Part shown: in pieces, positions 1 to 35,367 of the stretch
Layout: every line of letters begins with the position of its first letter
How positions within the stretch are numbered: the first letter of the stretch is position 1
Assembly (NCBI GenBank): GCA_903879805.1
Contig: CAIRMX010000140.1
Span: forward strand, 1-47,736
Origin: an uncultured Alphaproteobacteria bacterium
Lineage (GTDB): Bacteria > Pseudomonadota > Alphaproteobacteria > Rickettsiales > UBA1997
DNA: 47,736 nt
Direction of reading: 5' to 3'
Position numbers and translations under genes: made by a program
The notes under the pieces: generated by a model
Seen by the model: only the letters and a program-made list of their open reading frames with translations
Told to the model about the DNA's origin: nothing
The model's database searches: none

Positions 1-2404
1 AAAAGCTGCTGCCGAGTGGAATGGTTTCATCAAGATTGGCGCCAAGTCTGGCTAGGGGCGCGACGAGAGTTGCAAAATTATTGTCGAAAGCAATTTGTAA
101 CAATCCTTGAGTTGCCGCAGGATTTGGGCCCATTTCTGCAAAAGCCTCCACAGCCTTTTTTTTATTTTGCGCAACTGCGTAATATAGCGGCGAGAAACCT
201 TCGCCACTGTTTGAGTAAAAATCTGCAAATGTCACTCCGGCTTCTCTCAAAGCTCTGATGGCATCATCTTGTCCGTGATAAGCGGCGAAATGCGCTGGCG
301 TAAAATCTTCTTCAATTTTTGCGGTCAGAAGTTCGGGCTTTAATGCGCCAAGAAATTTCAGTGTTTTGAGGCTGCCATGACTACATGTTTCGCACATTAG
401 ATGTGCATTTGTTGGGTTAGTAAGAATGTCAGGGCTGTGACTTAGCAGCAGTTTAACAATTTCAACATTGTCCTTTGTGGCGGCAACAATGAGCGGCGTA
501 TTTCCATCGCCATCAATTTGGACGCAGAGCTCGGTGACTAAATCTTGAGCTGTAATTTGGCTTTTGATCTTTTGCAAAAGCAGTTCCATCAACTCGCAAT
601 TATTGTGCAGGGACGCTGAATGGAGCGCGTTGCTGCTGAGAAAAATCTCCGCAGTGGTGAAAAAATTATCCAATAGCATCACGCAAGCGTCAGCGTTGTT
701 GTGACTAGCTGCAGCTTCTAGACAATGACGCTGAAAACCTGTTGGCAATTCTGCGCGATGCTCTGGATCTTGCACTATTTTAGCATGCAGGCTGGCGAAA
801 ATTTCTGTGTAATCGGGGCGCAACATCAATTGCTCGCAAGCCAAGTAATAAGCAGCGTCCTGAGGATGCAAACTTTGCAGACTTGATTCTAATTCACTGA
901 CCAAATCAAAGTCGCTTGCCGAGCTTTTTATTTTGCGGGTTATGAACTCAATTGGAGCATTTCCTAGAAGTAGAGTTCCAATTGATGCGCTATGAAGATC
1001 TACTTGCTGAAAATTCGGATTAGCTTTGTGGATGTTGTAAAGGTTGATGATGCGCTCTACCTTTTCCGCCTGATGGGGCAAAAATTTATTGATTTGTATT
1101 CGCGCCAGATCTCTGAGATAGCTTACGTCTTCATGGTATTGTGGGCGAACTTCTTGAATGCCTTTCATGATTTCAAGAAATGTAATCGGAGCATTTCCGG
1201 CAAGATCTTCGCCCATTAACCACAAAGCCTCAAATCCGGCGAGCAACTCTTCGTCACTGCTGGGATTGTGTTTTAAATACTCTGCTGGTTCGAGTAATCC
1301 TAAAGTGCTGCCATAGATTTCTGATTTAAATAAGGCGCTTGCATCACCCCCAACTATTTGAGCAAAGGAGGTGGGTTTTCTGGGAGGGGTTTTTGGCTGA
1401 TCGAAAAATTCATCTAAAAAATCCAATGCTAAAATATTTTCTGCTGAGGCGCTTAAAGCAGATCTGCTGAGCCTCATGCTAAAATCTTTCCGAACTACAA
1501 CCTGTTTTTCATTGTAAATTTTGGCATGTTTTAACTTTGAAATCAGGGCTTCATTTAAAGTTTTATCATATTGAAAATTTACCGGATCGAAAGTGGGAAA
1601 CATCTCTCTCAAATCTGAAACGATCTCTTCAACTTTAGCTCTGCGCTGCCTGACTTCGTCAATAATTTCGGTGATTAACCGATCTTTAACTTTTCTCGAA
1701 TAAGAGGTGTGAATTTTGTGAGCTAAAAAAAGCGGTATTTGTGATTGTGGATGAAAAACTCTTTCTGCTTTAAGCCCCAAACTATATTCCAAATAGCTCG
1801 GAATATGAACTTCATTGCTGGAGAAAACGTGATCTTTTAAATCATCTACCGCATTAGCCATCACAACGTCATGCGCGCGTAATAATGGTTTGTATTTTTC
1901 ATCGGTGATTAAGGCTTGATGCAGCTTTTCGATTCTTTCTTCAGTGCCATCCAAGCAGTTTAAAAATTCACCTTCGGGTGGAAATGATTGTAAGAAAATC
2001 TCCCATTGATCTTCTGGCTTCAAGCTGAGCTGACAAAGATAATCGCAAAATTTATACATAATTTTTGCGCAGTGAGCGCTGCGCTCTGTAAGAAATCCGG
2101 CGATGTAGATTTCAAATTCTGAGCCGCTTTTTAGCGAATCTTTTTCTAAACCACGCTTAGCAAAATATTCGTAAGCAACCCGCATGGTTTCGCGCAATTG
2201 CGTTTTTGGATCAGTGGCGGCAAGCCATGAATCTCTTATTTCAACAAGCTCTGTATCTAAATCATCACTGCTTCGAACTGATTTTTGCTCGTCAAAAATT
2301 TCGCTCAGAATAACCCTAATTTTTAGGTCGCTTAAACTATTTATTTTATCCCTAATTTCCTGTTCGAAAATTGCTGGATCTTGAGTGAGAAAGTTGGGAA
2401 ACAT
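1..2404 (-). CDS. ankyrin-repeat protein, 3' end runs off the window (at least 801 codons)
   Basis: The minus-strand frame is open from ATG (2404-2402) to position 2 with no stop, which is why it is missing from the supplied ORF track. My hand translation begins MFPNFLTQDPAIFEQEIRDK. The last ~230 aa carry ankyrin-type repeats (GNTPLIVAATKDNVEIVKLLLSH, FTPAHFAAYHGQDDAIRALREAG, FSPLYYAVAQNKKKAVEAFAEMG, ...LARLGANLDE). Confidence 0.75.
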   Translation of the reverse strand, partial: MFPNFLTQDPAIFEQEIRDKINSLSDLKIRVILSEIFDEQKSVRSSDDLDTELVEIRDSWLAATDPKTQLRETMRVAYEYFAKRGLEKDSLKSGSEFEIYIAGFLTERSAHCAKIMYKFCDYLCQLSLKPEDQWEIFLQSFPPEGEFLNCLDGTEERIEKLHQALITDEKYKPLLRAHDVVMANAVDDLKDHVFSSNEVHIPSYLEYSLGLKAERVFHPQSQIPLFLAHKIHTSYSRKVKDRLITEIIDEVRQRRAKVEEIVSDLREMFPTFDPVNFQYDKTLNEALISKLKHAKIYNEKQVVVRKDFSMRLSRSALSASAENILALDFLDEFFDQPKTPPRKPTSFAQIVGGDASALFKSEIYGSTLGLLEPAEYLKHNPSSDEELLAGFEALWLMGEDLAGNAPITFLEIMKGIQEVRPQYHEDVSYLRDLARIQINKFLPHQAEKVERIINLYNIHKANPNFQQVDLHSASIGTLLLGNAPIEFITRKIKSSASDFDLVSELESSLQSLHPQDAAYYLACEQLMLRPDYTEIFASLHAKIVQDPEHRAELPTGFQRHCLEAAASHNNADACVMLLDNFFTTAEIFLSSNALHSASLHNNCELMELLLQKIKSQITAQDLVTELCVQIDGDGNTPLIVAATKDNVEIVKLLLSHSPDILTNPTNAHLMCETCSHGSLKTLKFLGALKPELLTAKIEEDFTPAHFAAYHGQDDAIRALREAGVTFADFYSNSGEGFSPLYYAVAQNKKKAVEAFAEMGPNPAATQGLLQIAFDNNFATLVAPLARLGANLDETIPLGSSF

Positions 2405-2546
2405 TTATTTGTAAGGAGTCAAAGATAGGTGATTAAAAAATGACTTTCTAGAATTGCGGTTTTTAATTCAGAAATTTCATCCCCTCCAAAATGCTGATCC
2501 GCTCAAAATTGACTGATTTTGAGATTGATCTTTTTAAGTTCAAAAA

Positions 2547-3242
2547 TTGAAAAAATCGCAACTGCCAATCTTCATTTTCCTTTGGTCTTTGATGCCATCT
2601 CTCGCCTTCGCAGCAGGCGCTTACTTGGTGGATGATGGTGGAATTACTGAAGCTAACAAATTGCAAGTTGAAAATTGGTACAGCCAAAGCAACACCGGTG
2701 AAACTATTTTAGTGACAAATCCTGGCTACCAACTTTTGCCTAACGCCGAATTTGCCATGCAAGAAAGTTACAGCGAAGACTCAAAAACTGTTAACACAGT
2801 TTGGCCACAGGTGAAATATCTTTGGCATAAAAGTGAAAATATTTTGAGCTCAACAACAATTGGCACCAACTATTCAACCACCGATCAAAAAAATTACGGC
2901 TCCTACGCCTACAGCTCTACAACAGTAAATGTTAGTGAATTAGCCGATGTGCATTTTTATGTCGGCTGGCAAAATTGGCGCCATTCATGGCACAACAACA
3001 AGAGTGTCGATTTTTTGAATTACGGCATTGGTTCGCAAATGCATTTGACGAAAACCTTGTCTTTCATTCCTGAATTATTTCAATCTAACGGCGCTAGCAA
3101 AAACGGCCCAACTCGCCCTGCCACACAATTTGGTTTGCGCTATTTTGCTTCCGACTTCTTCATTTTCGACTTAATCTACGGACATAACATCAACGGTAAT
3201 CTCCAAGATTGGACAACTTTTGGGGCAACTTTAACTTTTTAA
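2547..3242 (+). CDS. putative outer-membrane beta-barrel protein (family not assigned)
   Basis: TTG start. Signal peptide MKKSQLPIFIFLWSLMPSLAFA/AGAY, aromatic-rich strand-like pattern, and a C-terminal ...GATLTF whose terminal Phe is typical of OM beta-barrels. Confidence 0.5.
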   Translation: MKKSQLPIFIFLWSLMPSLAFAAGAYLVDDGGITEANKLQVENWYSQSNTGETILVTNPGYQLLPNAEFAMQESYSEDSKTVNTVWPQVKYLWHKSENILSSTTIGTNYSTTDQKNYGSYAYSSTTVNVSELADVHFYVGWQNWRHSWHNNKSVDFLNYGIGSQMHLTKTLSFIPELFQSNGASKNGPTRPATQFGLRYFASDFFIFDLIYGHNINGNLQDWTTFGATLTF

Positions 3243-3244
3243 AT

Positions 3245-3880
3245 ATGCGACAATCACTAATTTTTCTTACAACATCTTTTCTGTTTTTTTCTTGCTCGCC
3301 TTCAGATAAATCAGGCTTTTACAGAGGTTACGAAACTTCGACTTACCAAGTTGTGGAGCAAGTTGAAAATATCGAAATTCGTAAATATCCGGCAACTTTA
3401 ATTGCTGAAGTTGAGGTTGAAGGCGACAGAAAAGAAGCGGCAAAAAAAGGATTCATTATTTTGGCGCGCTACATCTTTGGCAAAAATATTTCTCAGCAAA
3501 AAGTGGCAATGACCTCGCCGGTTTTGCAGGAAAATATTTCTGAAAAAATTGCCATGACTTCACCAGTTACGCAAATTTCTGACAGCAAAAAAACATGGCG
3601 CATTCAATTTGCAATGCCCAAGCAATACACTCTAGAAAGCCTGCCGAAGCCGCTGGATGAAAAAATAAAATTTAAAATCACCAAAGAAAAAACTGTAGTA
3701 GCAATACGCTTTTCAGGCAGCTGGTCGGACCAACTTTTTGAAGAAAAGAAGCTGTTATTAAAAAATTTCATCGAGCAAAAAAACTTAAGCGCCACCTCAC
3801 CTGCAGCGATTTTTTATTACGATGATCCTTTGACTTTTCCGTGGAATCGTCGCAACGAAATAATTCAAGAGATTAAATAA
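3245..3880 (+). CDS. SOUL/heme-binding-protein family protein, probably exported or a lipoprotein
   Basis: SOUL-family pattern YETSTYQVVEQVENIEIRKYPATLIAEVEVEG...GFIILARYIFGKN...VAMTSPV...IAMTSPV. The ATG at 3245 (MRQSLIFLTTSFLFFSC...) gives a signal sequence, and I prefer it to the track start at 3209, which overlaps the upstream gene. Confidence 0.75.
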   Translation: MRQSLIFLTTSFLFFSCSPSDKSGFYRGYETSTYQVVEQVENIEIRKYPATLIAEVEVEGDRKEAAKKGFIILARYIFGKNISQQKVAMTSPVLQENISEKIAMTSPVTQISDSKKTWRIQFAMPKQYTLESLPKPLDEKIKFKITKEKTVVAIRFSGSWSDQLFEEKKLLLKNFIEQKNLSATSPAAIFYYDDPLTFPWNRRNEIIQEIK

Positions 3881-4818
3881 TGCTTAGAGTCGCAATAATC
3901 GGCGCTGGATTTTCGGGAATGGTTTTGGCTAACCAGTTGCAAAAAATCGCCAATGTAAAAATTTTTGAAAAAGCTCGGGGAGTTGGCGGCAGAATGTCGG
4001 CGCGTTACGTAGAAAATTTTTCCTTCGATCACGGTTTGCAATATTTTACGGCGCAAAATTCTGATTTTTTAGAATTTGTTACAAGCTGCGGCGCCGCCAT
4101 TTGGCAAGGTGAAGTGGCTAATTTAACCAGTGAAAAGTCGCGTTTTGAAAGCTATTTGGTTGCAACTCCAAACATGAATGGGTTGTGCAAAAAATTGGCG
4201 CAAAATTTTGAGATTCAATTTGGCGCAGAAGTTGTGCCTTTTGCCGCAAAAAAAATTGATGGTTGGCATTTATTTGACAAAAATTCTAACGCTCTTGGAG
4301 TTTTTGATTTGGTCATTTCAACCGCTCCTCTGGCGCAAACTCAGAAGCTTTTTGGCAAAGAAATTAAATCAGAAAAAGCGTTGCCCTGCTTTGCTTTGAT
4401 GCTTGGATTTAGCCAACCAAACCTGCTGACAAAATGGATTTTTGCGGAAGTTGAAAATAATCCAATCAAGTCAATTGCGGTAAATTCTAGCAAACCAAAT
4501 CGCAACAAAGCGGTTAGTTGTTTTGTCGCTCATTCAACCAACGCTTGGGCCGCAGATCATTTGGAAGATGATATTTTGGAAGTGCAAAAAAAGCTGATTA
4601 ATGAGTTTGAGTTGCTAACTAAAATTGATTGCAGCTCTGCTAACTACATTGCAACTCACCGCTGGCGCTACTCGGTGGTTTTGGATGAAAAAAAATCTGC
4701 ACCATTTTTTGATGCAGATTTGGGTCTTGCCGCAACTAGCGATTGGGTTAGCAATTCTCAGCTTGAAGATGTTTGGTTAGCCGCGATTGGTTTAGCAAAA
4801 AAAATTGCCGCTAATTAA
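3880..4818 (+). CDS. NAD(P)/FAD-dependent oxidoreductase, renalase-like
   Basis: N-terminal dinucleotide-binding fold VAIIGAGFSGMVLA...FEKARGVGGRMS. Size and layout resemble COG3380-type flavin amine oxidoreductases. The start overlaps the upstream stop (TAATG). Confidence 0.65.
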   Translation: MLRVAIIGAGFSGMVLANQLQKIANVKIFEKARGVGGRMSARYVENFSFDHGLQYFTAQNSDFLEFVTSCGAAIWQGEVANLTSEKSRFESYLVATPNMNGLCKKLAQNFEIQFGAEVVPFAAKKIDGWHLFDKNSNALGVFDLVISTAPLAQTQKLFGKEIKSEKALPCFALMLGFSQPNLLTKWIFAEVENNPIKSIAVNSSKPNRNKAVSCFVAHSTNAWAADHLEDDILEVQKKLINEFELLTKIDCSSANYIATHRWRYSVVLDEKKSAPFFDADLGLAATSDWVSNSQLEDVWLAAIGLAKKIAAN

Positions 4819-5387
4819 AATTTCCACTCCGCTCTTGCGTGATGACAAGTGTAACCAAAGGGATTTTTCTTCAGATAATTTTGGTGATATTCTTCCGCCG
4901 GATAAAAAACCGAAGCCTTTGAAACCCTTGTCACTATTGGCTTCTTGAACACTCCTGATTGATTTCCCGCAGCGATTACATTGAAGGCAATATTTTTTTG
5001 CTCGTCGTTAAAATAAAAAATCTCTGAGCGATATTGGCTGCCAATGTCGTTTTCTTGGCGATCCAAAGTTGTTGGGTTGTGAATTGTAAAATAAAATTTG
5101 AGCAATTTTTCGTAAGAGATTTTTTGCGGATCGAAGGTTACTTCCACGCTTTCGGCGTGCCCTGTCGCGCCGGTTGAAATCAGCTCGTAAGTTGGATTTG
5201 CCAGATTGCCACCGCTGTAACCAACCTCACTTTTTACCACACCTTTTAAACCACTAAAAAGCTCCTGCATTCCCCAAAAACATCCCCCCGCCAAAATAGC
5301 TTTTTCATATTTTGCGGCGTTGGCGTTGGATAAAAAATTTAACATTAGCGTAAAAAAAGTTATTAATTTTAAGAGATGGTTTTTCAT
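4815..5387 (-). CDS. msrA: peptide-methionine (S)-S-oxide reductase MsrA with N-terminal signal peptide
   Basis: Catalytic GGCFWGMQELF motif and C-terminal EYHQNYL. It is preceded by MKNHLLKLITFFTLMLNFLSNANA/AKY, which looks like a Sec signal peptide. Confidence 0.9.
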   Translation of the reverse strand: MKNHLLKLITFFTLMLNFLSNANAAKYEKAILAGGCFWGMQELFSGLKGVVKSEVGYSGGNLANPTYELISTGATGHAESVEVTFDPQKISYEKLLKFYFTIHNPTTLDRQENDIGSQYRSEIFYFNDEQKNIAFNVIAAGNQSGVFKKPIVTRVSKASVFYPAEEYHQNYLKKNPFGYTCHHARAEWKF

Positions 5388-5546
5388 TTTTGCGAGTAGG
5401 TTTTTGCTCAGATTTAAAAGGATTGGTTAAGCGCAATATTTGAAATTAGTTCAACCTTAAGGCGAATTTAGCCTTGTTAATTAAAGTTTATTTAGAAAAG
5501 AAGCTTGAAAGTTACCTAAATTTTTGAATTAAATTTTTCACAAATC

Positions 5547-7826
5547 ATGAAAACAAGATTGGAAAGCCTGAAAAAAAGCAACGCCTCTATCTCTGAAATA
5601 ACAGAAGATCTCGCAAAAGTAATTGGCGAAAGAGTTAAAATTTTTTCACAAGACGCCAGATCTTTGCCAGCAGAAGCCTTATTGGAGATTAGACAAATTA
5701 ACGATTTTATTAGAAAATCCCCAGAAATTATTGCCCACGAAAATAGCGCATTAAATGCTACGGAAACATTGCTTCACAAGCTTTTTGCTGGAGTGCCCAA
5801 TGATTACACTATTCAAATTATTCACCATTTAATCAGCCACTACGAAACCTTTGAACACAGACCAGATCTGTTGGAAATTATGATTAGTGACAACACGATT
5901 TCCTCAAATCCTGACATGTCGGAAACATTTGATCTTCTTGCGCAGAAAAACTTGCCTAGACCAACAGATAAAGAAATAGCAGCTTTGTTGAGAAGCTCGC
6001 GATCTAGCAGCGGCTTTAATGCCACAAAATTGGCTTTTAGTTTTTTAAATTACCGCCAAGATCATTCTTTGCTGCAAAAAATTAACAGCGCTGCATCAAC
6101 AAGAGAGAACACACGAGAAAAGTTGAATCTTAAAGCTCTTTTAGAGCGAAGAATTTTTGAAGGTGGCTTAGAGCATTTTCACAAATGCGTTGGCGATTTA
6201 GTTTTGATTAATGACGACTCCCTACTTCAAAAAGCTCTGAGTAATAAAAAAAGTCAAAAATTATTAACCGAATCAACCGATCACAGCTTAGCACTTAATT
6301 TAGCCGCTGAACACAAATTTGCCGAAACTTTCAGAATTTTAATTAATGCCGGCTTTGACCCTCTTAAACATCCAGCAAGTCTAACAAACTGCTTTGCCGA
6401 GGCTTGCAAAACCCAAGGAAGCGGTACTTTGGAACTCTACTTAGAATCAATTAGAGAAAAATTTGGTGACGAAGCGGTGACGGAAATTCTTCGTGAAGGC
6501 GAAACCGCCATGTTTCATGCAATCAATGGTAGAGCCTATATTAGCACCATTAATTTTTTGCTGGATAATGGCGCTTTAGTAGAAACAAAACTGTCTGAAA
6601 ATTTACAAACGGCTGCCAATCGTGGTCAAGCCAGAGCTTTTGAACTTTTATTAGAAAGAGGATCTTTAGAAGATGGGCAACTAGAAGATGTTTTTAACGA
6701 AGTAAAAACTAACGGCGACTACGTCATTGCAAGCATATTTGTGGAGTATTTAAAAAGCGCGGGGGGTCAAGATGCAAAATCTCAAGAATTAAAATCTGCC
6801 CTTAGTGAAAAGAAAGAGCGGCTAACTCACCAAGATCTATTTCGAATCTGTCAACTTAGTGGCGAAAAGACTCTGCAATCTTACCTAGATGCCCGCCCAG
6901 ATTACAATCTACAAGAGCATATAAATGATTTTGACGGCGAAGGAAAAACTGCTCTTTACTACGCAATTAACGACAATGCCTACAATGGGTTAGTTCAGTT
7001 TCTGCTAGATCGCGGCGCCAATCCCAATCAAATTGCCGCTGAGTCTCATGGCTCCACTCATTTAGATGCCGCCACTCTCGCAATTAGAAATTGCGAACCC
7101 ACAACATTAAGTCTTTTACTGAATTCTCGAAAGCTAAATTCAAACTCAATTCGCGGTGCCGCTGCTGAATTAATAAGGCCAGAAAATAATGAAATCGTTT
7201 TAACCGAGGCCTTTGTAAATCATGTGGATACTGGAGAAATTAGGCAACTTCCTCTGGAGGTTAAGCAAATAATGCTGCAAAGAAGTTTAGAATCTGATCG
7301 CGGACCTTGTATTTACAAAATGAGAGATTCTGCAAAAGGCACTGACCTTGAGTTCTTCATCGAAGATCTTTTTTGCAAAAAAATTGAGGAAGGAAATATC
7401 AAAGTAGTATCTGCAATGATTGAAAAACTTGAGGTCAGAAAGATGTTTTTAAGTCATGCAAGAAGAACAAAAGGTCCGACAGAAACCTCAGAACGAGATG
7501 CGCTTTTAAGTGTTTCAAGTATCAATGGTTACGGCGCATCAGAAGAAGAGACGCCGAAAACAATTTTTAAAATTCCCGCAGCAAGTGCTAAAAAATTAAG
7601 CGACGAGCAAGTTGATGTAAAATATGCTGACATGGCTTTTGAGTTGGCTAAATCTTCTAACGAAGAAGAGTCTAAAATGAGAAAAGAGATTTTTAAAAAA
7701 ATAGTTAGCGCGGGTTTTCCAACTTCAAAAAGCGAAAGAGAAATAAAAGCGCTTAAAATTGATGATGGACGCGGCAGTACTTGGTGTCCCTCAATTTGCT
7801 GCCCTTCTGTTTGCGTTGTTTCTTAA
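5547..7826 (+). CDS. ankyrin-repeat protein with C-terminal Cys-rich CaaX tail (CVVS)
   Basis: Ankyrin-type repeats (SLALNLAAEHKFAETFRILINAGFDP, ETAMFHAINGRAYISTINFLLDNGALVE, KTALYYAINDNAYNGLVQFLLDRGANPN). The protein ends ...WCPSICCPSVCVVS-stop. No signal peptide. Confidence 0.8.
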   Translation: MKTRLESLKKSNASISEITEDLAKVIGERVKIFSQDARSLPAEALLEIRQINDFIRKSPEIIAHENSALNATETLLHKLFAGVPNDYTIQIIHHLISHYETFEHRPDLLEIMISDNTISSNPDMSETFDLLAQKNLPRPTDKEIAALLRSSRSSSGFNATKLAFSFLNYRQDHSLLQKINSAASTRENTREKLNLKALLERRIFEGGLEHFHKCVGDLVLINDDSLLQKALSNKKSQKLLTESTDHSLALNLAAEHKFAETFRILINAGFDPLKHPASLTNCFAEACKTQGSGTLELYLESIREKFGDEAVTEILREGETAMFHAINGRAYISTINFLLDNGALVETKLSENLQTAANRGQARAFELLLERGSLEDGQLEDVFNEVKTNGDYVIASIFVEYLKSAGGQDAKSQELKSALSEKKERLTHQDLFRICQLSGEKTLQSYLDARPDYNLQEHINDFDGEGKTALYYAINDNAYNGLVQFLLDRGANPNQIAAESHGSTHLDAATLAIRNCEPTTLSLLLNSRKLNSNSIRGAAAELIRPENNEIVLTEAFVNHVDTGEIRQLPLEVKQIMLQRSLESDRGPCIYKMRDSAKGTDLEFFIEDLFCKKIEEGNIKVVSAMIEKLEVRKMFLSHARRTKGPTETSERDALLSVSSINGYGASEEETPKTIFKIPAASAKKLSDEQVDVKYADMAFELAKSSNEEESKMRKEIFKKIVSAGFPTSKSEREIKALKIDDGRGSTWCPSICCPSVCVVS

Positions 7827-7871: not shown

Positions 7872-8204
7872 TTAAACCAAAACCCCAACCAAACTACTCG
7901 GGCGGCTTTTTAGAATTTTGACCGAGGCAATTTTTCCAAAATATTTTTTTGCCTCTTCCTCGCTAGACACGTCAACAATAACCGACTGCAGCCACGGGCT
8001 TTTACCCCAAAGCTGAGTTCCGGGTCTCGGGGTTTTTGGGCTGTTGGCTTTGCTTTTCGGCGCTTCTTTTTCGAAAAGCACCGACATTGTCTGGTCTTCA
8101 AAACCCTGGTTAAAAATGATTTGCTTTTTGTTCATGTCTGCTAAAAGTTGGAATGAACGTGAGGTCGGCATTGCAAATGCCAACCTGCAGTGGTTACCAA
8201 CCAT
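7872..8204 (-). pseudogene. displaced duplicate of the miaB 3' end (TRAM domain); still an intact 110-codon ORF
   Basis: The last 83 codons (7872-8123) align without gaps to the miaB tail at 8833-9084, with 75/83 aa identical by eye. An 86-bp block at 7930-8015 is identical to 8891-8976. It lacks the radical-SAM body of miaB. Confidence 0.7.
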
Positions 8205-8210
8205 AAGTCG

Positions 8211-8828
8211 TTAAGGAAGAAGATCGCTTAAGGCGCCCACTAACTCATAACTGATATGCCTTATTGAAGCATAGTGAACTTTGTTATTAAAAGGTTTGGG
8301 AGTTGGATGATTTGAACTTACAACGTTCCATGCGATACTATTTTCGTAAAAAAGATTTTTGCTTTTTTGGTCTAGTTTTGAGTCGTAGTGGGCTCCACCT
8401 TCCTTATCACATAAAGTTTCAATGAGATCTTTTCTTGTGAACTTGTTACCAACAGCATCCTTAATCACAATCTGCTCCCACCATAGATTAAATTCTGCCA
8501 TATATTCATTGCCTCCGATTTGCTTCGCATCATCTAATTTGGGTTCAAACGAAGCACCTACTCCAGTTGTCAGTTTCATAATACATAAAGGACTAGAGGT
8601 GAGTAAATTTTCTTCATTCACCCTTAAGTCGGAATACATTCGAAAGATGATTTTTGATTTATAATTTGTTTGCTCCAGCAAGGATTGCGTAGTTTTGCTA
8701 TCTTTGCAGATAGTTCTGATGGCAGTTGCTATATCTACGGCAAAAGATTCCTGACCTTCATCGTAAAATTTATTGAAGTGCTTAAGTTTTTCTAACTTCT
8801 CTAAAAGGACATTGGCTGCATCTCTCAT
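8211..8828 (-). CDS. hypothetical protein (205 aa from the first ATG), orphan inserted between the two miaB tails
   Basis: Long ORF. The first ATG, at 8828, lies 4 nt after the miaB stop; the track start at 8849 is a TTG inside miaB. I recognise no motif, signal peptide or TM segment. Confidence 0.6.
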   Translation of the reverse strand: MRDAANVLLEKLEKLKHFNKFYDEGQESFAVDIATAIRTICKDSKTTQSLLEQTNYKSKIIFRMYSDLRVNEENLLTSSPLCIMKLTTGVGASFEPKLDDAKQIGGNEYMAEFNLWWEQIVIKDAVGNKFTRKDLIETLCDKEGGAHYDSKLDQKSKNLFYENSIAWNVVSSNHPTPKPFNNKVHYASIRHISYELVGALSDLLP

Positions 8829-8832
8829 AAAA

Positions 8833-10212
8833 CTATGCCAACTCTCCAACCAAGCTACTCGGTCTACTTTTTAAAATTTTGACCTGAGCGATTTTTCCAA
8901 AATATTTTTTTGCCTCTTCCTCGCTAGACACGTCAACAATAACCGACTGCAGCCACGGGCTTTTACCCCAAAGCTGCGTTCCGGGACGTGGGGTTTTTGG
9001 GCTGTTGGCTTTGCTTTTTGGAGCTTCTTTTTCGAAAAGCACGTCCATGACTTTGCCTTCAAAACCTTTGTTAAAAATAATCTGCTGCTGCGTTAAAAGT
9101 TCTTGCAAACGCGCAAGGCGCTCGGTTTTTATTTCTTCTGGCACTTGAATTTTTGCGTCTGCGGCGGGCGTTCCCGGACGCGGAGAATATTTAAAAGAGT
9201 AGCATTGCGAGAAGCCGATTTTCTTAATTAGATCAAGTGTGTCTTCAAAATCTTGATCGCTTTCACCGGGAAATCCGACAATAAAATCTGACGACAAACC
9301 AATGTCTGGCCTTGCGGCACGAATCTTTTCAATAATTTTAAAATAATCTTGGCGGGTATGTTTGCGGTTCATGCCTTTTAAAACATTGTTTGATCCCGAC
9401 TGAATCGGCAGATGCAAAAATGGCATTAATTTATCAATTGCTCCGTGGGCTGCGATCAAATCATCAGTCATGTCGCGCGGATGAGAAGTGGTGTAGCGCA
9501 CGCGTTTTACTTCGGGAATTGCCGCAATTTCGGCGACCAATTTTGCTAGGCTCGCCGACTCACCTTTTTCATCCAAACCGTGGTAAGCATTAACATTTTG
9601 CCCCAGCAAATAAATTTCGCTGACGCCCTGCTCGGCCAGCCTTTTAGCATCGGCAACAATTTTAGAAACTTCGCGCGAATATTCAGCGCCACGAGTGTAA
9701 GGCACGACGCAAAAAGTGCAGAATTTATCGCAGCCTTCTTGCACTGTCACAAAAGCGCTGGTGCCAACGCCCGCAGTGCTTTGCGGCAAGGCATCAAATT
9801 TATCGTTGGGCGTAAATTCTAAATTAATTTGTTTTTTCTTTTCGCGAATCACCTTTCCAACCAGATCTGGCAAGGTTTGGTAACTTTCAGGCCCCACAAT
9901 AATATCAACCACATTGGAACGGCGGAAAATTTCTTCACCTTCGGCTTGGGCCACGCAACCAGCAACTGCAACGATCATTTGGCTGCCATCATTTTTCATT
10001 TTATCTTTGTGCGGGCGAATTCTGCCGAGATCAGAAAATAATTTTTCCGAAGCTTTTTCGCGAATGTGACAAGTGTTGATAATTACCATGTCGGCGCCTT
10101 CGGGACTGTCGGTGGTTTCGTAACCAACTGCGGTCATTAGGTCTTGCATGCGGTCTGAATCATAAACGTTCATTTGGCAGCCGTAGGTTTTTATGTGTAA
10201 TTTTTTAGTCAT
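8833..10212 (-). CDS. miaB: tRNA-2-methylthio-N6-dimethylallyladenosine synthase MiaB
   Basis: N-terminal MTKKLHIKTYGCQMNVYDSDRM, radical-SAM CDKFCTFCVVPYTRG (CxxxCxxC) and a C-terminal TRAM domain. Confidence 0.95.
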   Translation of the reverse strand: MTKKLHIKTYGCQMNVYDSDRMQDLMTAVGYETTDSPEGADMVIINTCHIREKASEKLFSDLGRIRPHKDKMKNDGSQMIVAVAGCVAQAEGEEIFRRSNVVDIIVGPESYQTLPDLVGKVIREKKKQINLEFTPNDKFDALPQSTAGVGTSAFVTVQEGCDKFCTFCVVPYTRGAEYSREVSKIVADAKRLAEQGVSEIYLLGQNVNAYHGLDEKGESASLAKLVAEIAAIPEVKRVRYTTSHPRDMTDDLIAAHGAIDKLMPFLHLPIQSGSNNVLKGMNRKHTRQDYFKIIEKIRAARPDIGLSSDFIVGFPGESDQDFEDTLDLIKKIGFSQCYSFKYSPRPGTPAADAKIQVPEEIKTERLARLQELLTQQQIIFNKGFEGKVMDVLFEKEAPKSKANSPKTPRPGTQLWGKSPWLQSVIVDVSSEEEAKKYFGKIAQVKILKSRPSSLVGELA

Positions 10213-10219
10213 TTTTATT

Positions 10220-11017
10220 TTAATTTTTCCAACCGGTTACAGTCACGATTTCAAAAGTTGCAGCTACGCCACCTTCACTTGTTGCGTAAATTTTACGGTA
10301 ATTTTCAGAAATTTTTTGTAAAAATTCTTTAGTAAAAAACTTCCGCGAGCGTTTAGTTAAAATGTTGCCCTGCCCCATGTTTTTCAAGTCTTTTAACAGA
10401 TTCAAAGGCTCGCCATACTCAACTTCAATTTTAGCAAAATCAGAAATCGGATTTTGAAAACCGGCTTTGGCAAAAAGATTGGCAGCGGTTTTTACATCAA
10501 TTGTCGGCGGCATTCTCGGCGAAATTCCGCCGTAAATTTCATTTTCAGTTTCGTATAAAACGTGAGCCAGTTGGCTGAGATTTTCTTCACCAAAAAAGCT
10601 GGCGATGAAGACGCCGTTTGGTTTTAATAGGTTTTTGATTTGGAGTAAAAATTGCGGAATTTCGTTGATGAAGTGGAAGTTGAGATTGCTTAGAATTAGG
10701 TCAAAGGATTCGGGAGCTTGTGGCAAGCCCTCTTCATCATCACACTCCTCCCAAGTCACCCTGAGCTTGTCGAAGGGTGATTCAGGGCGCGGGCTTGAAT
10801 CATGCTTCGACAAGCTCAGGGTGACATCGTGAAGATGGTCATCTAAAGCCCCAATCTCCAAAATATTCACAAACTCACGATTCAATAACCCAACATTCTC
10901 AGCAATTCTATTTGCAACTTCGTGATGTAAAAAATTATGCTGCACGAAACCCTTGGCAGCGCGTTTGCGGTTTTGCCGCAGCAAATCTCGATCAAATAGA
11001 ACCTCTTGAGTCATCAC
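10220..11017 (-). CDS. class I SAM-dependent methyltransferase-like protein (NDUFAF5/BioC-like) carrying an in-frame palindromic insert
   Basis: N-terminus FDRDLLRQNRKRAAKGF...FLHHEVANRIAENV and SFDLILSNLNFHFINE...LKPNGVFIASF match the methyltransferase-11 / NDUFAF5-like layout. Motif I is degenerate (ILEIGALDD). Confidence 0.7.
   Translation of the reverse strand: MMTQEVLFDRDLLRQNRKRAAKGFVQHNFLHHEVANRIAENVGLLNREFVNILEIGALDDHLHDVTLSLSKHDSSPRPESPFDKLRVTWEECDDEEGLPQAPESFDLILSNLNFHFINEIPQFLLQIKNLLKPNGVFIASFFGEENLSQLAHVLYETENEIYGGISPRMPPTIDVKTAANLFAKAGFQNPISDFAKIEVEYGEPLNLLKDLKNMGQGNILTKRSRKFFTKEFLQKISENYRKIYATSEGGVAATFEIVTVTGWKN
10755..10825. repeat. palindromic RPE/MITE-like element (family C) inside a coding region
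   Basis: A perfect 21-bp inverted repeat: gtcaccctgagcttgtcgaag (10755-10775) and cttcgacaagctcagggtgac (10805-10825). It is translated in frame as VTLSLSKHDSSPRPESPFDKLRVT. Confidence 0.85.
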
Positions 11018-16990: not shown

Positions 16991-18826
16991 ATGTTTGTGC
17001 CACAAAAGATTAAATGGAAATTTTTTTACCAAAATCAGTGCAGCTTCGAAGCACCAGAAGGCATGAGAATGCTGGCACCATTGCTGCTTAGTCGAGATGC
17101 GCCAAATCAAGCTTACATCAAAGTTTTGCAAAAAATGATGAGTCGTGGTTTTTGCGTTTGCGTACCTTGTGATGAAACCTCTGAAGGTCTTGTTGGCAGT
17201 TTTGACGAAGAAAACATCGATCAATTTTTATCTGAAGCGCGATACAAAACATCAACTTGCGATCTAAAATTTGCAACCGGCCCCTGCCCGACAAATTTAT
17301 TTCCCACCTCTCCCTCTGAAGGTGCGTCACAAGCTATCAGTGCCCTCGAGCATGGTTTTGACATCATTGATTTTTGTGGCGGAATCGGCATCGACCAAAA
17401 ATTAATTTTGGTAAAAGATTATTTTAGAAGCGCCGCACTTCCCGAAAAAAGAAGTAGATTTTGGGGATTTAGCAATGGTTCAGCGCCAATGCTTTATTTA
17501 GGAGATGTCTTGCAAGCAATTCAGTCGAGATCTGCTTCTGATCTTTTTATGGACGAAAGTGCCGACAGAGATTTTGTAATCTCAAAAATGATTGAAGAAA
17601 ATAGAGCCGAAGATTTTGTCGAAAAAACTCTTCTACCGCTCAATGATTTTGCCAAAATAAAATATTCTTCCCAAGCAATTGGCGAGTCGATAAAATTCTA
17701 CGCCGTCAATGCCGAAGCCTTGTTACACAATTTGGACAGCGAAGAAGAATGGTCTCCACCTTTAGGTGAGAAATTTATTTTATCTATTGAGGGAATTTCT
17801 GGTGCTACAGGATTTTCACCTCACGAAGCTTTGGAAAAATTTTTAGCAAAATATCCCCCAGATCAAATTCAGCATATTGAGTTGGGAGAAATAGTAACTT
17901 TGAAATCAATTGGAATGGCGCAAATTGACGGGCAGTTAGTTAGCCCAAATGAAGAGCTAAATGCAGAAATTCTCGCCGAACAAGCAGCAATAAAAGCTAT
18001 TTGCGATCATTACGGAGTTGCTTTGGTGGCCAAAGAAGGCACTAGAACTGGACATGGTTCACATGTCGATCTTGATCCTTCTGATATGCCTTGTTCCATA
18101 TTTTCCAGCATAGCCGAAGATGGTGCATTGCGACTAACTCAGCGCACAAATTTGTTTAATTTAAGCACTCCACAAAAGCCGAGTGATAAAAAGCCAATGA
18201 ATAATTTATCTATCAAACCGCGATGGCAGCTTGATTCAACAGAGCGTCCAAAATTTTTATCAGAAGAAAGCTATAATCCACATTGCGATCCGACTCCAAC
18301 TACTCGCAATTTTGATTTAGAAGTTATCGCAATGAATTCAGAAGCTCATGAAATGTTACAAGGCGGTGCAATCACGCATGAAGTGGTTGGAGGTAAAATG
18401 TACAACGCAATTGAACTCGATTTAAATTTGGAAAAAGGGTTATTTTTGGTGCATGGCGCTTACGGAAGAAATGGCGCTTTTTTGCAAATTCAAGATGCGA
18501 CAATGCGAGGCCGAATGGGAAAAAGTAATATCTCCACAGGAGCTTTGGATCTACCTTTCGTTATTATCGGACACAATCTTTCGCCAGAAATTCCTGTCGA
18601 AAAAGCTCAAGATTTTATCAAATGGAATCAGGCTCTTTTGGTAAAATTTATTGAGCTAAATCAGCTGCACCAAACGCCGATATTTTATATTCGCGAACCT
18701 CTTGCAATCGATTGCGATTTATTCGCTGGACTGGTTAACTTAAGATCGAAAACACCAGTTACCGAAATCCAAACCTCAGAACCATCCACTCAACAAGGCA
18801 AGTCCTCTTCTCATTTTCATGCGTAA
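16991..18826 (+). CDS. hypothetical protein; N-terminal ~375 aa weakly resemble peptidase S66 (LD-carboxypeptidase/MccF-like), C-terminal ~240 aa unknown
   Basis: Long ORF whose stop overlaps the next gene by 8 nt. S66-like landmarks seen by eye: FCGGIG, then WGFSNG 30 aa later, then LSIEGISG and TRTGHGSH. No database confirmation was possible. Confidence 0.55.
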   Translation: MFVPQKIKWKFFYQNQCSFEAPEGMRMLAPLLLSRDAPNQAYIKVLQKMMSRGFCVCVPCDETSEGLVGSFDEENIDQFLSEARYKTSTCDLKFATGPCPTNLFPTSPSEGASQAISALEHGFDIIDFCGGIGIDQKLILVKDYFRSAALPEKRSRFWGFSNGSAPMLYLGDVLQAIQSRSASDLFMDESADRDFVISKMIEENRAEDFVEKTLLPLNDFAKIKYSSQAIGESIKFYAVNAEALLHNLDSEEEWSPPLGEKFILSIEGISGATGFSPHEALEKFLAKYPPDQIQHIELGEIVTLKSIGMAQIDGQLVSPNEELNAEILAEQAAIKAICDHYGVALVAKEGTRTGHGSHVDLDPSDMPCSIFSSIAEDGALRLTQRTNLFNLSTPQKPSDKKPMNNLSIKPRWQLDSTERPKFLSEESYNPHCDPTPTTRNFDLEVIAMNSEAHEMLQGGAITHEVVGGKMYNAIELDLNLEKGLFLVHGAYGRNGAFLQIQDATMRGRMGKSNISTGALDLPFVIIGHNLSPEIPVEKAQDFIKWNQALLVKFIELNQLHQTPIFYIREPLAIDCDLFAGLVNLRSKTPVTEIQTSEPSTQQGKSSSHFHA

Positions 18827-22903: not shown

Positions 22904-22989
22904 ACCCCCCATTGTCACCCCGTCGAATGACGGGGTCCACAGTCCAAGATATTTGATCTTTTGTGTGACGAGATGGACCCCGTCATTCG
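22904..22989. repeat. palindromic element, family A (complete copy)
   Basis: Left arm gtcaccccgtcgaatgacggggtccac (from 22904) and right arm gtgacgagatggaccccgtcattcgacggggtgac (to 22989). Each arm contains a 7-bp stem, ccccgtc-gaat-gacgggg. Confidence 0.85.
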
Positions 22990-23025
22990 ACGGGGTGACA
23001 AATTAAAAAAGACGAAAATTAGTTC

Positions 23026-26500: not shown

Positions 26501-26608
26501 TTTTAAAATTCAGGTTGGACAAATTGTCTCAGATTAAAAAATTATTTTGCGATTGGATTTAGCGCTTTTTAGAAAGCCGATTCTCTTTTAATGTATCTTT
26601 TTTTTTCC

Positions 26609-27544
26609 ATGAAAATCTCAACAAAACATTTTTTGGCAGCACTTTTTTTGTTAGCCTTTTCTGCCAGTGAAGCCCTCGCCTGCGCTTGTGGCTGTGGCGT
26701 TTTCACGGTTGGAACTAGCGCTTTAATTCCAAATTGCGAAGGTGGCACGGCGTTTGTTCAATATGATTATTTGACGCAAAGCCGTAACTGGAGCAAAGAA
26801 AGTCAAACTAGCGGTCACAATCACGACAAAAGAATTCAAACTCAAACCGTCACTGTTGGCGCACAATATATGTTTAATCGTGAGTGGGGAATGGCTGCAC
26901 GGCTACCTTACGTAACTCGCTACATTAAATCAGTTGAGCATGGTGACGATCATGCTTTAGAGCCACACGATACAAGAACTAACTCAGTTGGCGATGTTCG
27001 TCTTAATGCAATTTATTCGGGATTTTCCGCCGACATGTCGAGCGGTTTAACTTTTGGTTTGAAACTTCCAACCGGCCAAACCAAAGCCCGCAACTTGGAT
27101 GAGCGCAACATGCAAATCGGCACCGGCACTACTGATTTGCTTTTAGGCGCCTACAAAATGGGACAATTTGATAAAGTTGGAAAGTTTAACTGGTTCGCTC
27201 AAACCGGCTTACAGCATGCTTTAAACAGCCATCAAGGATTTCGTTCTGGGGATGAAATTTCTGCAGCAACTGGAATTTATTACAATACTGGATCATTTCT
27301 TGGCATCAAAAAAGTTGCGCCAATTTTGCAAGTTACTGGAGCTAAAAGACTGCGCGACAGTGGTTTTGCATCTGACTCAAAAAATAGCGGCTACAGCCAA
27401 GCTTTCTTTGCGCCTGCAATCGAATTAAATTTCACCAGTTTTAAAATCTACGCTGACGTGGAATTTCCAATCTACCGCAACGTTAACGGCACTCAATTGG
27501 TAGCGCAGAACTTATACAAAATGATCTTGGGTTATAATTTTTAG
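26609..27544 (+). CDS. putative outer-membrane beta-barrel protein with an N-terminal CxCxC motif
   Basis: Signal peptide MKISTKHFLAALFLLAFSASEALA/CACGCGVF; a strand-like pattern rich in aromatics and Gly; C-terminal ...ILGYNF. I prefer the ATG at 26609 to the one at 26591. Confidence 0.55.
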   Translation: MKISTKHFLAALFLLAFSASEALACACGCGVFTVGTSALIPNCEGGTAFVQYDYLTQSRNWSKESQTSGHNHDKRIQTQTVTVGAQYMFNREWGMAARLPYVTRYIKSVEHGDDHALEPHDTRTNSVGDVRLNAIYSGFSADMSSGLTFGLKLPTGQTKARNLDERNMQIGTGTTDLLLGAYKMGQFDKVGKFNWFAQTGLQHALNSHQGFRSGDEISAATGIYYNTGSFLGIKKVAPILQVTGAKRLRDSGFASDSKNSGYSQAFFAPAIELNFTSFKIYADVEFPIYRNVNGTQLVAQNLYKMILGYNF

Positions 27545-29959: not shown

Positions 29960-30086
29960 CCCCTCCTTTTTAAGGAGGGGTTGGGGTGGTTATTCGCAGA
30001 ATCGATTGAAAAAAATTATTTGCGCAAAAAAGACTAAAAAATGAGTTTGCGAATAACCACCTCGACCCCTACTTGAAAAGGAGGGG
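29960..30086. repeat. two inverted family-B palindromic element copies upstream of sdhC
   Basis: cccctcctttttaaggaggggttggggtggttattcgc (29960-29997) and gcgaataaccacctcgacccctacttgaaaaggagggg (30049-30086) are near reverse complements of each other and resemble 15588-15628. Confidence 0.8.
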
Positions 30087-33670: not shown

Positions 33671-34477
33671 ATGAAAAATATCCTCTTCCTTGGTTGTGGA
33701 AAAATGGGCTCGATTTTGGTTAAAAACTTACTTGAGCAAAAGAGCGCCAAGCCCAGTCAAATAAGCATTTTAGAGAAGTCGGAGAACAACAGAATTGATG
33801 GATTAAGTTACTTCAAAAATGTCGGTGGGCTGCCCAAAAATTACCAAGCTGATTTAGTCTTTCTTGCCATCAAACCCCAAGATGCCGCAGAAATTTTAAG
33901 TGAATTTGCTCAAGCAAAAATATTTTCCAAAAACACTATTTTCATCTCGATTCTGGCCGGAAAAAAAATCGCCTTTTTCGAAAATATTTTTGGCACGCAG
34001 ACCAAAATAATTCGCTCAATGCCAAACCTGCCAATTGATGATTCTCAAGGTGTCTTCACATTTTTTGCCAATAAAAATGTCACTGCCACTGATTCAAAAA
34101 AACTGCTAGAAATCTTCGAAAAATTCGGCACTGCTTTTGAGCTAAAAGATGAAAAACTTTTTGACGCAGCAACTGCAATTTTTGGATCGGGCCCTGCTTA
34201 CATTTTTTTGCTACAAGAAATTTTTACTGAAATTGCCATTAGTCACAAAATCAGCAAAGAAGCGGCTACAGCCTTGGTTAAACAATTGTTTTTGGGCAGC
34301 GCTTTGATGTCTTGTAACTCTGATTTAGATTTTTTGGCACTACGCGAATCGGTCACTTCAAAAGGCGGCACCACTGATGCAGCGCTGCAAATTTTGCAAA
34401 AAAACTCGGCATTAAAAAAGCTTTGTGCAGACGCCATTGATGCTGCTGCAGAAAGATCCAACAAACTTGCAAAATGA
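33671..34477 (+). CDS. proC: pyrroline-5-carboxylate reductase
   Basis: MKNILFLGCGKMGS Rossmann start and C-terminal SKGGTTDAAL. The track start at 33620 lies inside the repeat element, so I rejected it. Confidence 0.88.
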   Translation: MKNILFLGCGKMGSILVKNLLEQKSAKPSQISILEKSENNRIDGLSYFKNVGGLPKNYQADLVFLAIKPQDAAEILSEFAQAKIFSKNTIFISILAGKKIAFFENIFGTQTKIIRSMPNLPIDDSQGVFTFFANKNVTATDSKKLLEIFEKFGTAFELKDEKLFDAATAIFGSGPAYIFLLQEIFTEIAISHKISKEAATALVKQLFLGSALMSCNSDLDFLALRESVTSKGGTTDAALQILQKNSALKKLCADAIDAAAERSNKLAK

Positions 34478-35367
34478 GATTAGCCCAGATTGTCAATAAG
34501 TGCATGGCAACTTTAGCTGCAAAAAAATACGCCTCCAGCTACGGTAAAACCCCACCCCTCCTCTTAAGTTTTGCATCAAGCACCCTCAATCTAGAAGAAC
34601 TACAAAATACCAGCAAAAAACTAGTCCCCATCGTCGCCGCTGAAGTTGTGCAAAATATGCTTTTGCGCAGTGAAGAATTTGTGCCTCACAATTCAGCCCA
34701 GTGGGTTGCGATGAGAAATTTTCAGCTCAGACATCTTCGCTACGGTGAATGTGCTACTTTGAGCAATGGCTTACTTACTGAAATAGTCAAAGAAACCGCT
34801 TACCAAACTGGCGAGATGCAAGTTAGCCAATTCGATATAAATCCAAAAAATCAGGAAAGCTTCCGACGCGGCCTTGATCACACTGCAATTCTATTAGAAT
34901 TAGATGGCAGAGTAATTTTAGCAGATCCACTTCTTAGAACATCTTGTGACTTAAAAGATTTTCCAACTCATCCCCCAGTTGTCAGATATTACGAAGAAGC
35001 TGCCGATATTAGCGAGAAAACAGCTATTGAATTAGCTAAAGGCGCCCAACTTACTAAGAAAATCTTTGATCCATCCTTAGTAAATCCAGAGTCTCTGAGA
35101 CATTGGGATCAAAAACTAGAAACTCTTTTTCAACAAGATGAGCTAACCTTAACTCAATTTGGAGAGTTAACTAAAGTTTTGGATCGGGTTGAAGATGCCC
35201 AACCTCACAACTTACGATCTTTCGTTCGTGATCTGATGCAGAACTTGCATAATTTTACAGCACAAAACGAGCAGCTACTTGTGGCTCAACAAACCCCTTC
35301 GGTAAAATTACAGACCATTGGTAATTCTCCGATCAGCCTCAATACAAATAATTATAAGCAAAAATGA
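34474..35367 (+). CDS. hypothetical protein with a putative Cys-His-Asp (NAT/transglutaminase-like) catalytic layout
   Basis: 297-codon ORF joined to proC and rnhA by ATGA overlaps at both ends. [12 protein letters not shown] (Cys93) and [18 protein letters not shown] (His136, Asp151) recall arylamine N-acetyltransferase motifs. Confidence 0.6.

Follow-up and report, generated by a model that had tools for sequence, protein, structure and literature searches.

A bacterial ankyrin-repeat protein with a C-terminus laid out like that of Ras is encoded on contig CAIRMX010000140.1 of an uncultured alphaproteobacterium, of which a stretch of 47,736 nucleotides (hereafter the window) was analyzed. 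The protein ends in the CaaX box CVVS, and the rule behind these four residues is kept in every deep branch of a lineage-specific family whose tails can otherwise not be aligned with one another. We consider it likely that the protein is an exported scaffold effector which is farnesylated and palmitoylated by its host, is anchored to a membrane in this way and binds host proteins through its solenoid. Its producer is probably associated with eukaryotes.

The hijacking of host prenylation has been shown by experiment in very few bacteria (in the literature reviewed, Legionella with AnkB/Pel and Salmonella with SifA). Elsewhere, it has been argued from motif scans of single genomes, which are unable to separate function from chance. 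We know of no use for a CaaX motif inside a bacterium. Retention of the motif throughout a family in which the tail is unalignable is strong comparative evidence for such a mechanism outside the Gammaproteobacteria, and it provides a clue, from sequence only, that an uncultured alphaproteobacterial lineage found in several metagenome and metagenome-assembled genome (MAG) assemblies meets the eukaryotic cytosol. The concept itself is established already, and the advance will be incremental unless host association and allele polymorphism are confirmed. Beyond the established concept, the comparison suggests exchangeable anchors and a hypervariable slot, and the family supplies naturally occurring anchor variants with which the lipid signals that set the membrane address of an effector could be studied.

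The CaaX box in the protein and in its family

The gene is an intact open reading frame (ORF) with an ATG start, 759 codons and a stop codon at its end. It had been singled out by an earlier, sequence-only reading of the window, which placed the frame and the CaaX codons correctly. The ORF closes with GRGSTWCPSICCPSVCVVS, and the stop codon (7824-7826) follows directly on the box. The 16-residue tail quoted in that reading, STWCPSICCPSVCVVS, is real and together with the stop codon occupies 7776-7826, whereas the start given for it, 7785, is that of the first Cys codon. The extreme C-terminus has Cys at position -4, an aliphatic residue at a2 and a residue compatible with farnesyltransferase (FTase) at X, as expected of a CaaX effector. 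A Ser at X denotes a CaaX box of the farnesyltransferase type. Upstream of the CaaX Cys (C756) there are three more Cys (C747, C751 and C752), one fewer than had been counted at first, and the last 13 residues (CPSICCPSVCVVS) therefore hold four, with CC and CP pairs among them. At least one lies within about 10 residues upstream of C756, as in the dual signal of Ras-type tails.

Taken by itself, such a motif could be a chance C-terminus without function. From residue frequencies, we estimate that an ending of the form C-x-aliphatic-[S/M/A/Q] is expected about one to two times per bacterial proteome, so that a single CaaX motif is not significant by itself. The window has just one, and among its ORFs of at least 60 residues this is also the only one with Cys at -4. 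When all fetched loci were considered together with the window (106 ORFs of at least 150 residues), Cys at -4 was found only in members of the family and in one integrase (CKFN). As for a general enrichment of CaaX endings, no CaaX protein outside the family was found in about 200 kb of sequence from the lineage.

The motif is lifted above chance by its conservation across the family. A first homolog search returned 11 true relatives with 33-96% identity, one of which (P0011) is truncated, hence 10 with an intact C-terminus. All ten of these full-length close homologs end in C-x-[I/V]-[S/M], with the boxes CVVS, CVIS, CNVM, CTIM, CRIM (twice), CRVM, CAVM and CAIS (twice). The earlier proposal had been made to depend on the tail being kept in homologs, and it is kept in the close homologs as well as in the deep branches, with its surroundings diverged. 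A scan of genome contigs gave a single match, L001, which is a partial copy in the uncultured Alphaproteobacteria MAG KT6_bin-167 and has CIVS for CVVS, a conservative change at a1. Against this 94%-identical copy, the gene has a dN/dS of 0.44 over 503 codons. A scan of metagenome contigs added one true member, L013, and three generic ankyrin (ANK) matches. The L013 member (3883-6388, + strand), located in a sucB/ABC-permease slot, is read as two overlapping ORFs of 208 and 653 residues and ends in CAMM; its split stems from a frameshift or else from faulty assembly.

Searching 1.84 billion representative proteins with a profile then extended the family to about 38 representatives, with 47 sequences in total. 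Cys is found exactly at -4 in 21 of the approximately 38 representatives and in 29 of the 47 sequences overall. Among these 29 CaaX members, a2 is Ile in 19, Val in six, Met in two, and Leu and Thr in one each, while X is Ser in 13, Met in 12, Ala in two, and Gln and Leu in one each. This is the pattern expected of farnesyltransferase substrates, with one box of the type used by geranylgeranyltransferase I (GGTase-I). Controls differ sharply, with Cys at -4 in 3 of 109 generic multi-repeat ankyrin proteins and in none of 127 MnmG homologs. Cys makes up 9.3% of the last 20 residues in the family as opposed to 1.1% of the protein bodies. CaaX members are found in every deep branch of a neighbor-joining tree, and in the alignment the tail residues flanking the motif are unalignable and the length of the linker varies, with the distance from Cys to stop being constant.

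That a four-residue C-terminal rule should be kept at less than 30% pairwise identity would be hard to explain without selection. With a2 and X limited to residues compatible with prenyltransferases and the neighboring residues beyond alignment, family-wide conservation effectively refutes the view of CVVS as a chance ending, which we regard as extremely unlikely.

The likeness to H-Ras that had been seen in the single tail extends to the family: in 21 of the 29 CaaX members, at least one extra Cys lies upstream at a distance of 4-14 residues, and its surroundings often read [D/S/W]-C-[C/F/W]-P; two members have the form CCC-aa-X. The other eight (P0150, P0155, P0157, P0158, P0160, P0170, P0171 and P0191) have a single tail Cys only, and most of them carry two to four Lys/Arg in the stretch upstream of the CaaX box. 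These forms correspond to the three classical second signals of Ras, as known from the palmitoylated Cys of H- and N-Ras and the polybasic stretch of K-Ras4B.

A Cys-rich tail could also have a role in or on the bacterium, as a metal, Fe-S or redox site or as a disulfide tether, in which case its likeness to a CaaX sequence would be incidental. The four clustered Cys, with their CC and CP pairs, would suit such a role, and one clade of the family has Cys-rich tails without CaaX, where Cys evidently matter in the absence of the box. However, this leaves the fixed Cys at -4, the restriction at a2 and the choice of Ser, Met, Ala or Gln at X unexplained. Moreover, the eight members with one Cys have too few for a metal site, and the tail is predicted to be disordered. 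It is very unlikely that the tail serves the bacterium in this manner, and a lipidation signal read by a eukaryotic host remains the preferred explanation.

Fold of the protein and the proposed anchoring mechanism

The protein belongs to the ankyrin-repeat class by three lines of evidence. Within the segment listed in Table 1, a Pfam scan gave Ank_2 at 42.7 bits (cut-off 27.3), Ank at 34.9 (21.1), Ank_3 at 29.4 (22.3) and Ank_5 at 30.5 (27). In a search of PDB sequences, positions of approximately 275-560 of the family profile matched ankyrins and DARPins of solved structure. Finally, the AlphaFold2 (AF2) model, with a mean predicted local distance difference test (pLDDT) score of 80.4, is an all-helical and continuous solenoid of hairpins, and the best PDB match of the full model in Foldseek is erythrocyte ankyrin-1. 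Sequence models detect only two to three repeats, while reading of the sequence together with DSSP elements gives six to eight ANK-like hairpins; the first count of "at least five" was a fair one. The N-terminal domain, when modeled alone by AF2, is also all-helical (pLDDT 87), and Foldseek found only generic ARM/HEAT-like repeats for it in the PDB (best E = 0.096). Apart from the lineage-specific family, homolog searches returned nothing but generic ANK proteins. A catalytic effector was considered and dropped, as Pfam (E <= 1), the PDB profile search and Foldseek with the full model and the N-terminal domain yielded no matches other than ankyrin or generic alpha-solenoids.

In the same model, pLDDT is 26-43 over aa 639-687 and does not reach 50 at aa 741-745 and 748-759. 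The segment that precedes the CaaX box is thus predicted to be accessible and flexible.

Table 1. Features of the gene and of the protein it encodes, in window coordinates
Feature	Position	Strand	Length or basis
Whole gene, ankyrin-solenoid protein with C-terminal CaaX	5547-7826	+	759 aa
N-terminal family-specific helical-repeat domain, aa 1-245, holding the conserved SNPDMSETFDLLAQKNLP block	5547-6281	+	Alignment, AF2
Ankyrin-like solenoid, aa 246-638	6282-7460	+	Pfam, profile, AF2/Foldseek
Pfam-detected ANK repeats, aa 432-526	6840-7124	+	Pfam
Linker, aa 639-677, low confidence, probably disordered	7461-7577	+	AF2; gap-rich unconserved columns
Small conserved C-terminal helical module, aa 678-735, KY(L/A)D..A and GF.TSK motifs	7578-7751	+	Alignment, AF2
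Flexible lipidation tail (predicted), aa 736-759, ending in KIDDGRGSTWCPSICCPSVCVVS	7752-7823	+	AF2; family Cys frequency
C747 (7785-7787), C751 (7797-7799) and C752 (7800-7802), candidate S-palmitoylation sites ("second signal")	7785-7802	+	Upstream Cys in 21 of 29 CaaX members
CaaX box CVVS, C756 predicted farnesyl acceptor, a2 = Val, X = Ser	7812-7823	+	Motif rule, family conservation

The model that we propose starts from the observed motif, its conservation and its bacterial context, together with the predicted flexible tail and solenoid fold. From there, we infer translocation, lipidation, a target membrane and binding partners. First, the protein would be made in the bacterial cytoplasm; inspection of the sequence by eye, with no predictor used, found no signal-peptide-like N-terminus. 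Some secretion system, of which the window holds none, would then export it into a eukaryotic cell. There, according to the motif rules, host FTase would farnesylate C756, RCE1 would cut off -VVS and ICMT would methylate the new C-terminus. By analogy with C181/C184 of H-Ras and with SifA, host DHHC palmitoyltransferases could acylate at least one of the three upstream Cys, and this would lock the protein on a host membrane, for example the plasma membrane, the Golgi or a symbiont-containing vacuole. On the flexible linker of about 40 residues, the helical and ankyrin solenoid, 640 residues long, would reach out into the cytosol and may there bind and recruit or sequester host proteins. Across the family, the anchor would act as an exchangeable address label.

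The same tail layout is known from the hypervariable region of H-Ras, N-Ras and K-Ras4A, in which a flexible linker leads to a farnesylated CaaX box, with one to three Cys that can be palmitoylated in the 10 or so residues before it. H-Ras ends in CMSCKCVLS. The family tails CIIM, CAIM and CSVM are identical to genuine eukaryotic boxes, those of K-Ras4A, lamin B1 and Rheb. Unlike Ras, the window protein lacks a GTPase domain, and the tail architecture alone is common to both. A Ras-superfamily GTPase was accordingly rejected as a candidate, with an all-helical fold, no G domain and no Ras or P-loop match in Pfam, AF2 and Foldseek.

Legionella AnkB (LegAU13, Lpg2144) is, like the window protein, a bacterial ankyrin-repeat protein that ends in a CaaX box; it combines an F-box with ankyrin repeats, and its motif (169-CVLC) is farnesylated by host FTase (PMC2916131). 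In contrast, the window protein has 759 residues with a long solenoid, a family-specific N-terminal domain, three extra upstream Cys and no F-box, and its producer is an alphaproteobacterium rather than Legionella with its Dot/Icm system. An AnkB orthologue was rejected, since the Pfam scan (E <= 1) gave no F-box and nothing is alike outside of the ANK repeats. As the two have nothing in common beyond generic ANK repeats, independent mimicry is the better reading.

The Pel/CMP effectors of Legionella (PelA-K, LseA, LegG1/PelE) carry a host-prenylated CaaX box that is needed for their localization to membranes or the vacuole (PMC13081727, PMC7542358). Their bodies are unrelated (SNARE-like, RCC1-like and others), and the C-terminal CaaX box is what they share. 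While these have been tested by experiment as single, species-level genes, in the present case prenylation is predicted and the box is kept across a whole deep family. For Salmonella SifA, prenylation of the CaaX Cys and S-acylation of a neighboring Cys by the host were reported (Reinicke 2005, summarized in PMC4951486). SifA differs in being geranylgeranylated by GGTase-I, in its delivery by a type III secretion system (T3SS) and in lacking ankyrin repeats; for the window protein, X = Ser would predict farnesylation. Prediction of type IV effectors in alpha- and gammaproteobacteria already draws on the CaaX motif as a feature (PMC3814349). In the literature, the coverage of which was incomplete, we found no description of an ANK-CaaX family conserved in Alphaproteobacteria, so that this is absence of evidence only.

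Exceptions to the rule and the slot next to msrA

Several observations weigh against a host-lipidated effector and have to be set beside the evidence above. Owing to shared phylogeny, the sequences counted for conservation are not independent observations. In 13 representatives (P0148, P0151, P0159, P0161-P0164, P0166-P0169, P0173 and P0174), which form a monophyletic clade of 11 and the pair P0148/P0151, the tail is Cys-rich and lacks the CaaX box, and a tail is lacking altogether in at least two further members (P0149 and L012:132-3320). One of these tail-less proteins sits in the very position of the window gene. Window positions 1-5391 are 94.8% identical in nucleotides to L012, a close relative, and the similarity is lost right after msrA; the slot that corresponds to 5391-7826 of the window is filled in L012 (132-3514) by a 1062-residue family member which is 37% identical and ends in SSKSGYKGR. 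With tails being swapped or lost in this way, the scaffold does not require CaaX. Genes for a T3SS, a type IV secretion system (T4SS) or a type VI secretion system (T6SS) were found neither in the window nor in the flanks of 12 related loci. The organism is known from MAGs only, labeled as Alphaproteobacteria, Proteobacteria or Rickettsiales bacterium, and with the biosynthetic genes proC, glmS, a bioC-like gene and an sdh operon in the window, it is not obviously obligate intracellular.

As to secretion, the nearest to relevant genes in the window and the 12 loci are pilT and one pseudopilin-like gene. Assignment of pilT as DotB/VirB11 was rejected, since the match to the PilT family (1e-133) is far better.

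The exceptions among the tails are informative in their own right. The tails without CaaX comprise about 20 residues with the pattern S-[I/F]-C-x-x-hydrophobic, contain one or two Cys and are amphipathic, with a hydrophobic moment (muH) of 0.4-0.75 in most. They may represent a palmitoylation anchor or an amphipathic-helix anchor, and the S-palmitoylated effectors LpdA and GobX of Legionella and SspH2 and SseI of Salmonella would be likely analogues of this clade, not of the window protein (PMC13081727, PMC4951486). Together with the CaaX members, the family would thus offer a CaaX box with upstream Cys, a CaaX box with basic residues, the CCCaaX form, a Cys-bearing amphipathic helix, or no anchor. 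Since the tails are swapped or lost, the anchor appears to be exchangeable, which suits an address label for host membranes better than a structural or catalytic element. A parallel on a small scale is found in AnkB of the Legionella strain Paris, in which CaaX is lost and another anchoring motif is used (PMC5506055).

This exchange also bears on whether the conserved C-terminus is mainly a signal for type IV or type I secretion, with lipidation being absent or secondary. The tail is predicted to be disordered as such signals are, and many substrates of the T4SS and the type I secretion system (T1SS) are recognized through their last 20-50 residues, as with C-terminal Dot/Icm signals (PMC13081727). 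However, the CaaX Cys of AnkB is dispensable for its translocation, meaning that both functions can coexist (PMC13081727). That the family tolerates the tail being replaced wholesale is easier to reconcile with a host address label than with an export signal that could not be dispensed with. Furthermore, we know of no secretion signal that needs Cys at -4 together with an aliphatic a2. The tail could act in secretion as well, which would leave the a2/X rule unexplained; that secretion is its main function is very unlikely. We therefore retain lipidation by the host as the preferred reading of the box.

No fewer than three assemblies (those of the window, L001 and P0001) carry the CaaX allele, and the slot adjacent to msrA looks like the site of an allele replacement or a hypervariable effector locus. 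Alleles of 37% identity within a flank of 94.8% identity, if they occur within one population, would be the pattern expected of balancing or diversifying selection at an effector locus. A broader picture can be drawn from this, which we offer tentatively and hold to be possible rather than probable. A widespread uncultured alphaproteobacterial lineage, met with in several unrelated metagenome and MAG assemblies, would be an undescribed associate of eukaryotes, probably of protists, in which mimicry of the Ras tail arose independently of Legionella and was kept through deep divergence. A swappable anchor would retarget one ankyrin scaffold to different host membranes, and anchored and unanchored alleles of 37% identity would share the msrA slot in one population.

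Genomic context and lineage

The gene stands alone as a transcription unit; it is divergent from msrA (4815-5387, - strand) and convergent with a 110-residue orphan (7872-8204, - strand). Promoter-like and terminator-like sites around it are not commoner than in shuffled sequence, and neither tRNAs nor Rfam matches were found in the window. In the neighborhood are msrA, miaB, a bioC-like methyltransferase, comF, ampD, maeB (NADP-malic enzyme), tsaD, dnaB and regA/regB, and further housekeeping genes of alphaproteobacterial type in the window include glmS, sdhCDAB, proC, rnhA, pilT and mnmG. Among the best 120 MnmG homologs, the nearest named one is from a "Rickettsiales bacterium" MAG (78% identity). 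The earlier reading had called the genome alphaproteobacterial in appearance, and the flanking genes and the relatives of MnmG bear this out.

Related loci have comparable surroundings. The gene order sucB/ANK/ABC permease is common to L002, L004 and L013, and the order mnmG-TPR-pilT is common to L008 and the window. In L005, the family gene is the positional orthologue of that in the window, being followed by miaB, the methyltransferase, comF, ampD and maeB. The members in L005 and L008 are distant ones. These comparable chromosomal contexts indicate that the family belongs to one uncultured alphaproteobacterial lineage.

Such contexts also bear on the question of a eukaryotic origin, according to which the gene would be a recent transfer from a eukaryote or a mis-binned eukaryotic fragment and not an effector. 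Ankyrin repeats and CaaX boxes are both typical of eukaryotes, and the GC content of the gene (0.37-0.40) is slightly under the window mean. However, the gene lies on a single contig with bacterial housekeeping genes on both sides, and family genes in five other loci are placed likewise. In the profile search, no eukaryotic protein had the N-terminal domain, and below the family there were only generic multi-repeat ankyrin proteins. The dN/dS of the gene and the deep divergence of the family inside one bacterial lineage also contradict this origin, which we consider hardly credible in comparison with a resident bacterial effector gene.

The window protein is not the only ankyrin protein of the lineage. 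A second ANK gene (2-2404, - strand) is an 801-residue ORF that runs off the start of the contig, with an Ank_2 match at E = 2.4e-22 and an N-terminal region of about 550 residues to which no function could be assigned. Its full-length relatives (P0288 and P0289, about 1150 residues) end in KEMGPANDI, with no CaaX box. Four ANK genes occur within 20 kb of L012. At 42483-46538 (- strand), there is a 1351-residue orphan with no Pfam match and a strongly negative GC skew. Besides coiled-coil, E/K-rich 11-residue repeats (at 45063-45218, a 33-nt unit present 4.7 times), it contains a 21-nt unit that encodes DDNNFSV and recurs 6.6 times (44264-44401), and it looks effector-like. The density of ankyrin genes and this coiled-coil repeat orphan are indirect hints at association with a eukaryotic host.

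Three inverted repeats were seen in the window. A near-perfect palindrome of about 71 nt (10755-10825), with 30-nt arms that are 93% complementary, is located in frame within the bioC-like methyltransferase ORF (10220-11017, - strand), and falls in a loop that is different in the L005 orthologue. A full second copy is found at the contig end of L012 (6-80), just 3' of the tail-less ANK gene, and a 15-nt match to its core is found in L004 at about 5910-5924, inside a queA-like gene. The element is reminiscent of the Rickettsia palindromic elements, which may be one more indirect hint at a eukaryotic host. The other two are intergenic hairpins with no Rfam match, one between tsaD and dnaB (22912-23001) with 28-nt arms of 100% complementarity, and the other between glmS and sdhC (29960-30086) with 44-nt arms of 86% complementarity.

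Orphan ORFs are interspersed among the housekeeping genes at 16991-18826 (+), 26591-27544 (+), 34474-35367 (+) and 7872-8849 (-), with lengths of 611, 317, 297, 110 and 212 residues and no match in Pfam or NCBIfam. Finally, two BcaP-like APC amino-acid transporters of 460 and 461 residues are encoded in tandem at 35800-38577 (- strand) and match the same model at about 1e-170; this pair may reflect a trait of amino-acid scavenging.

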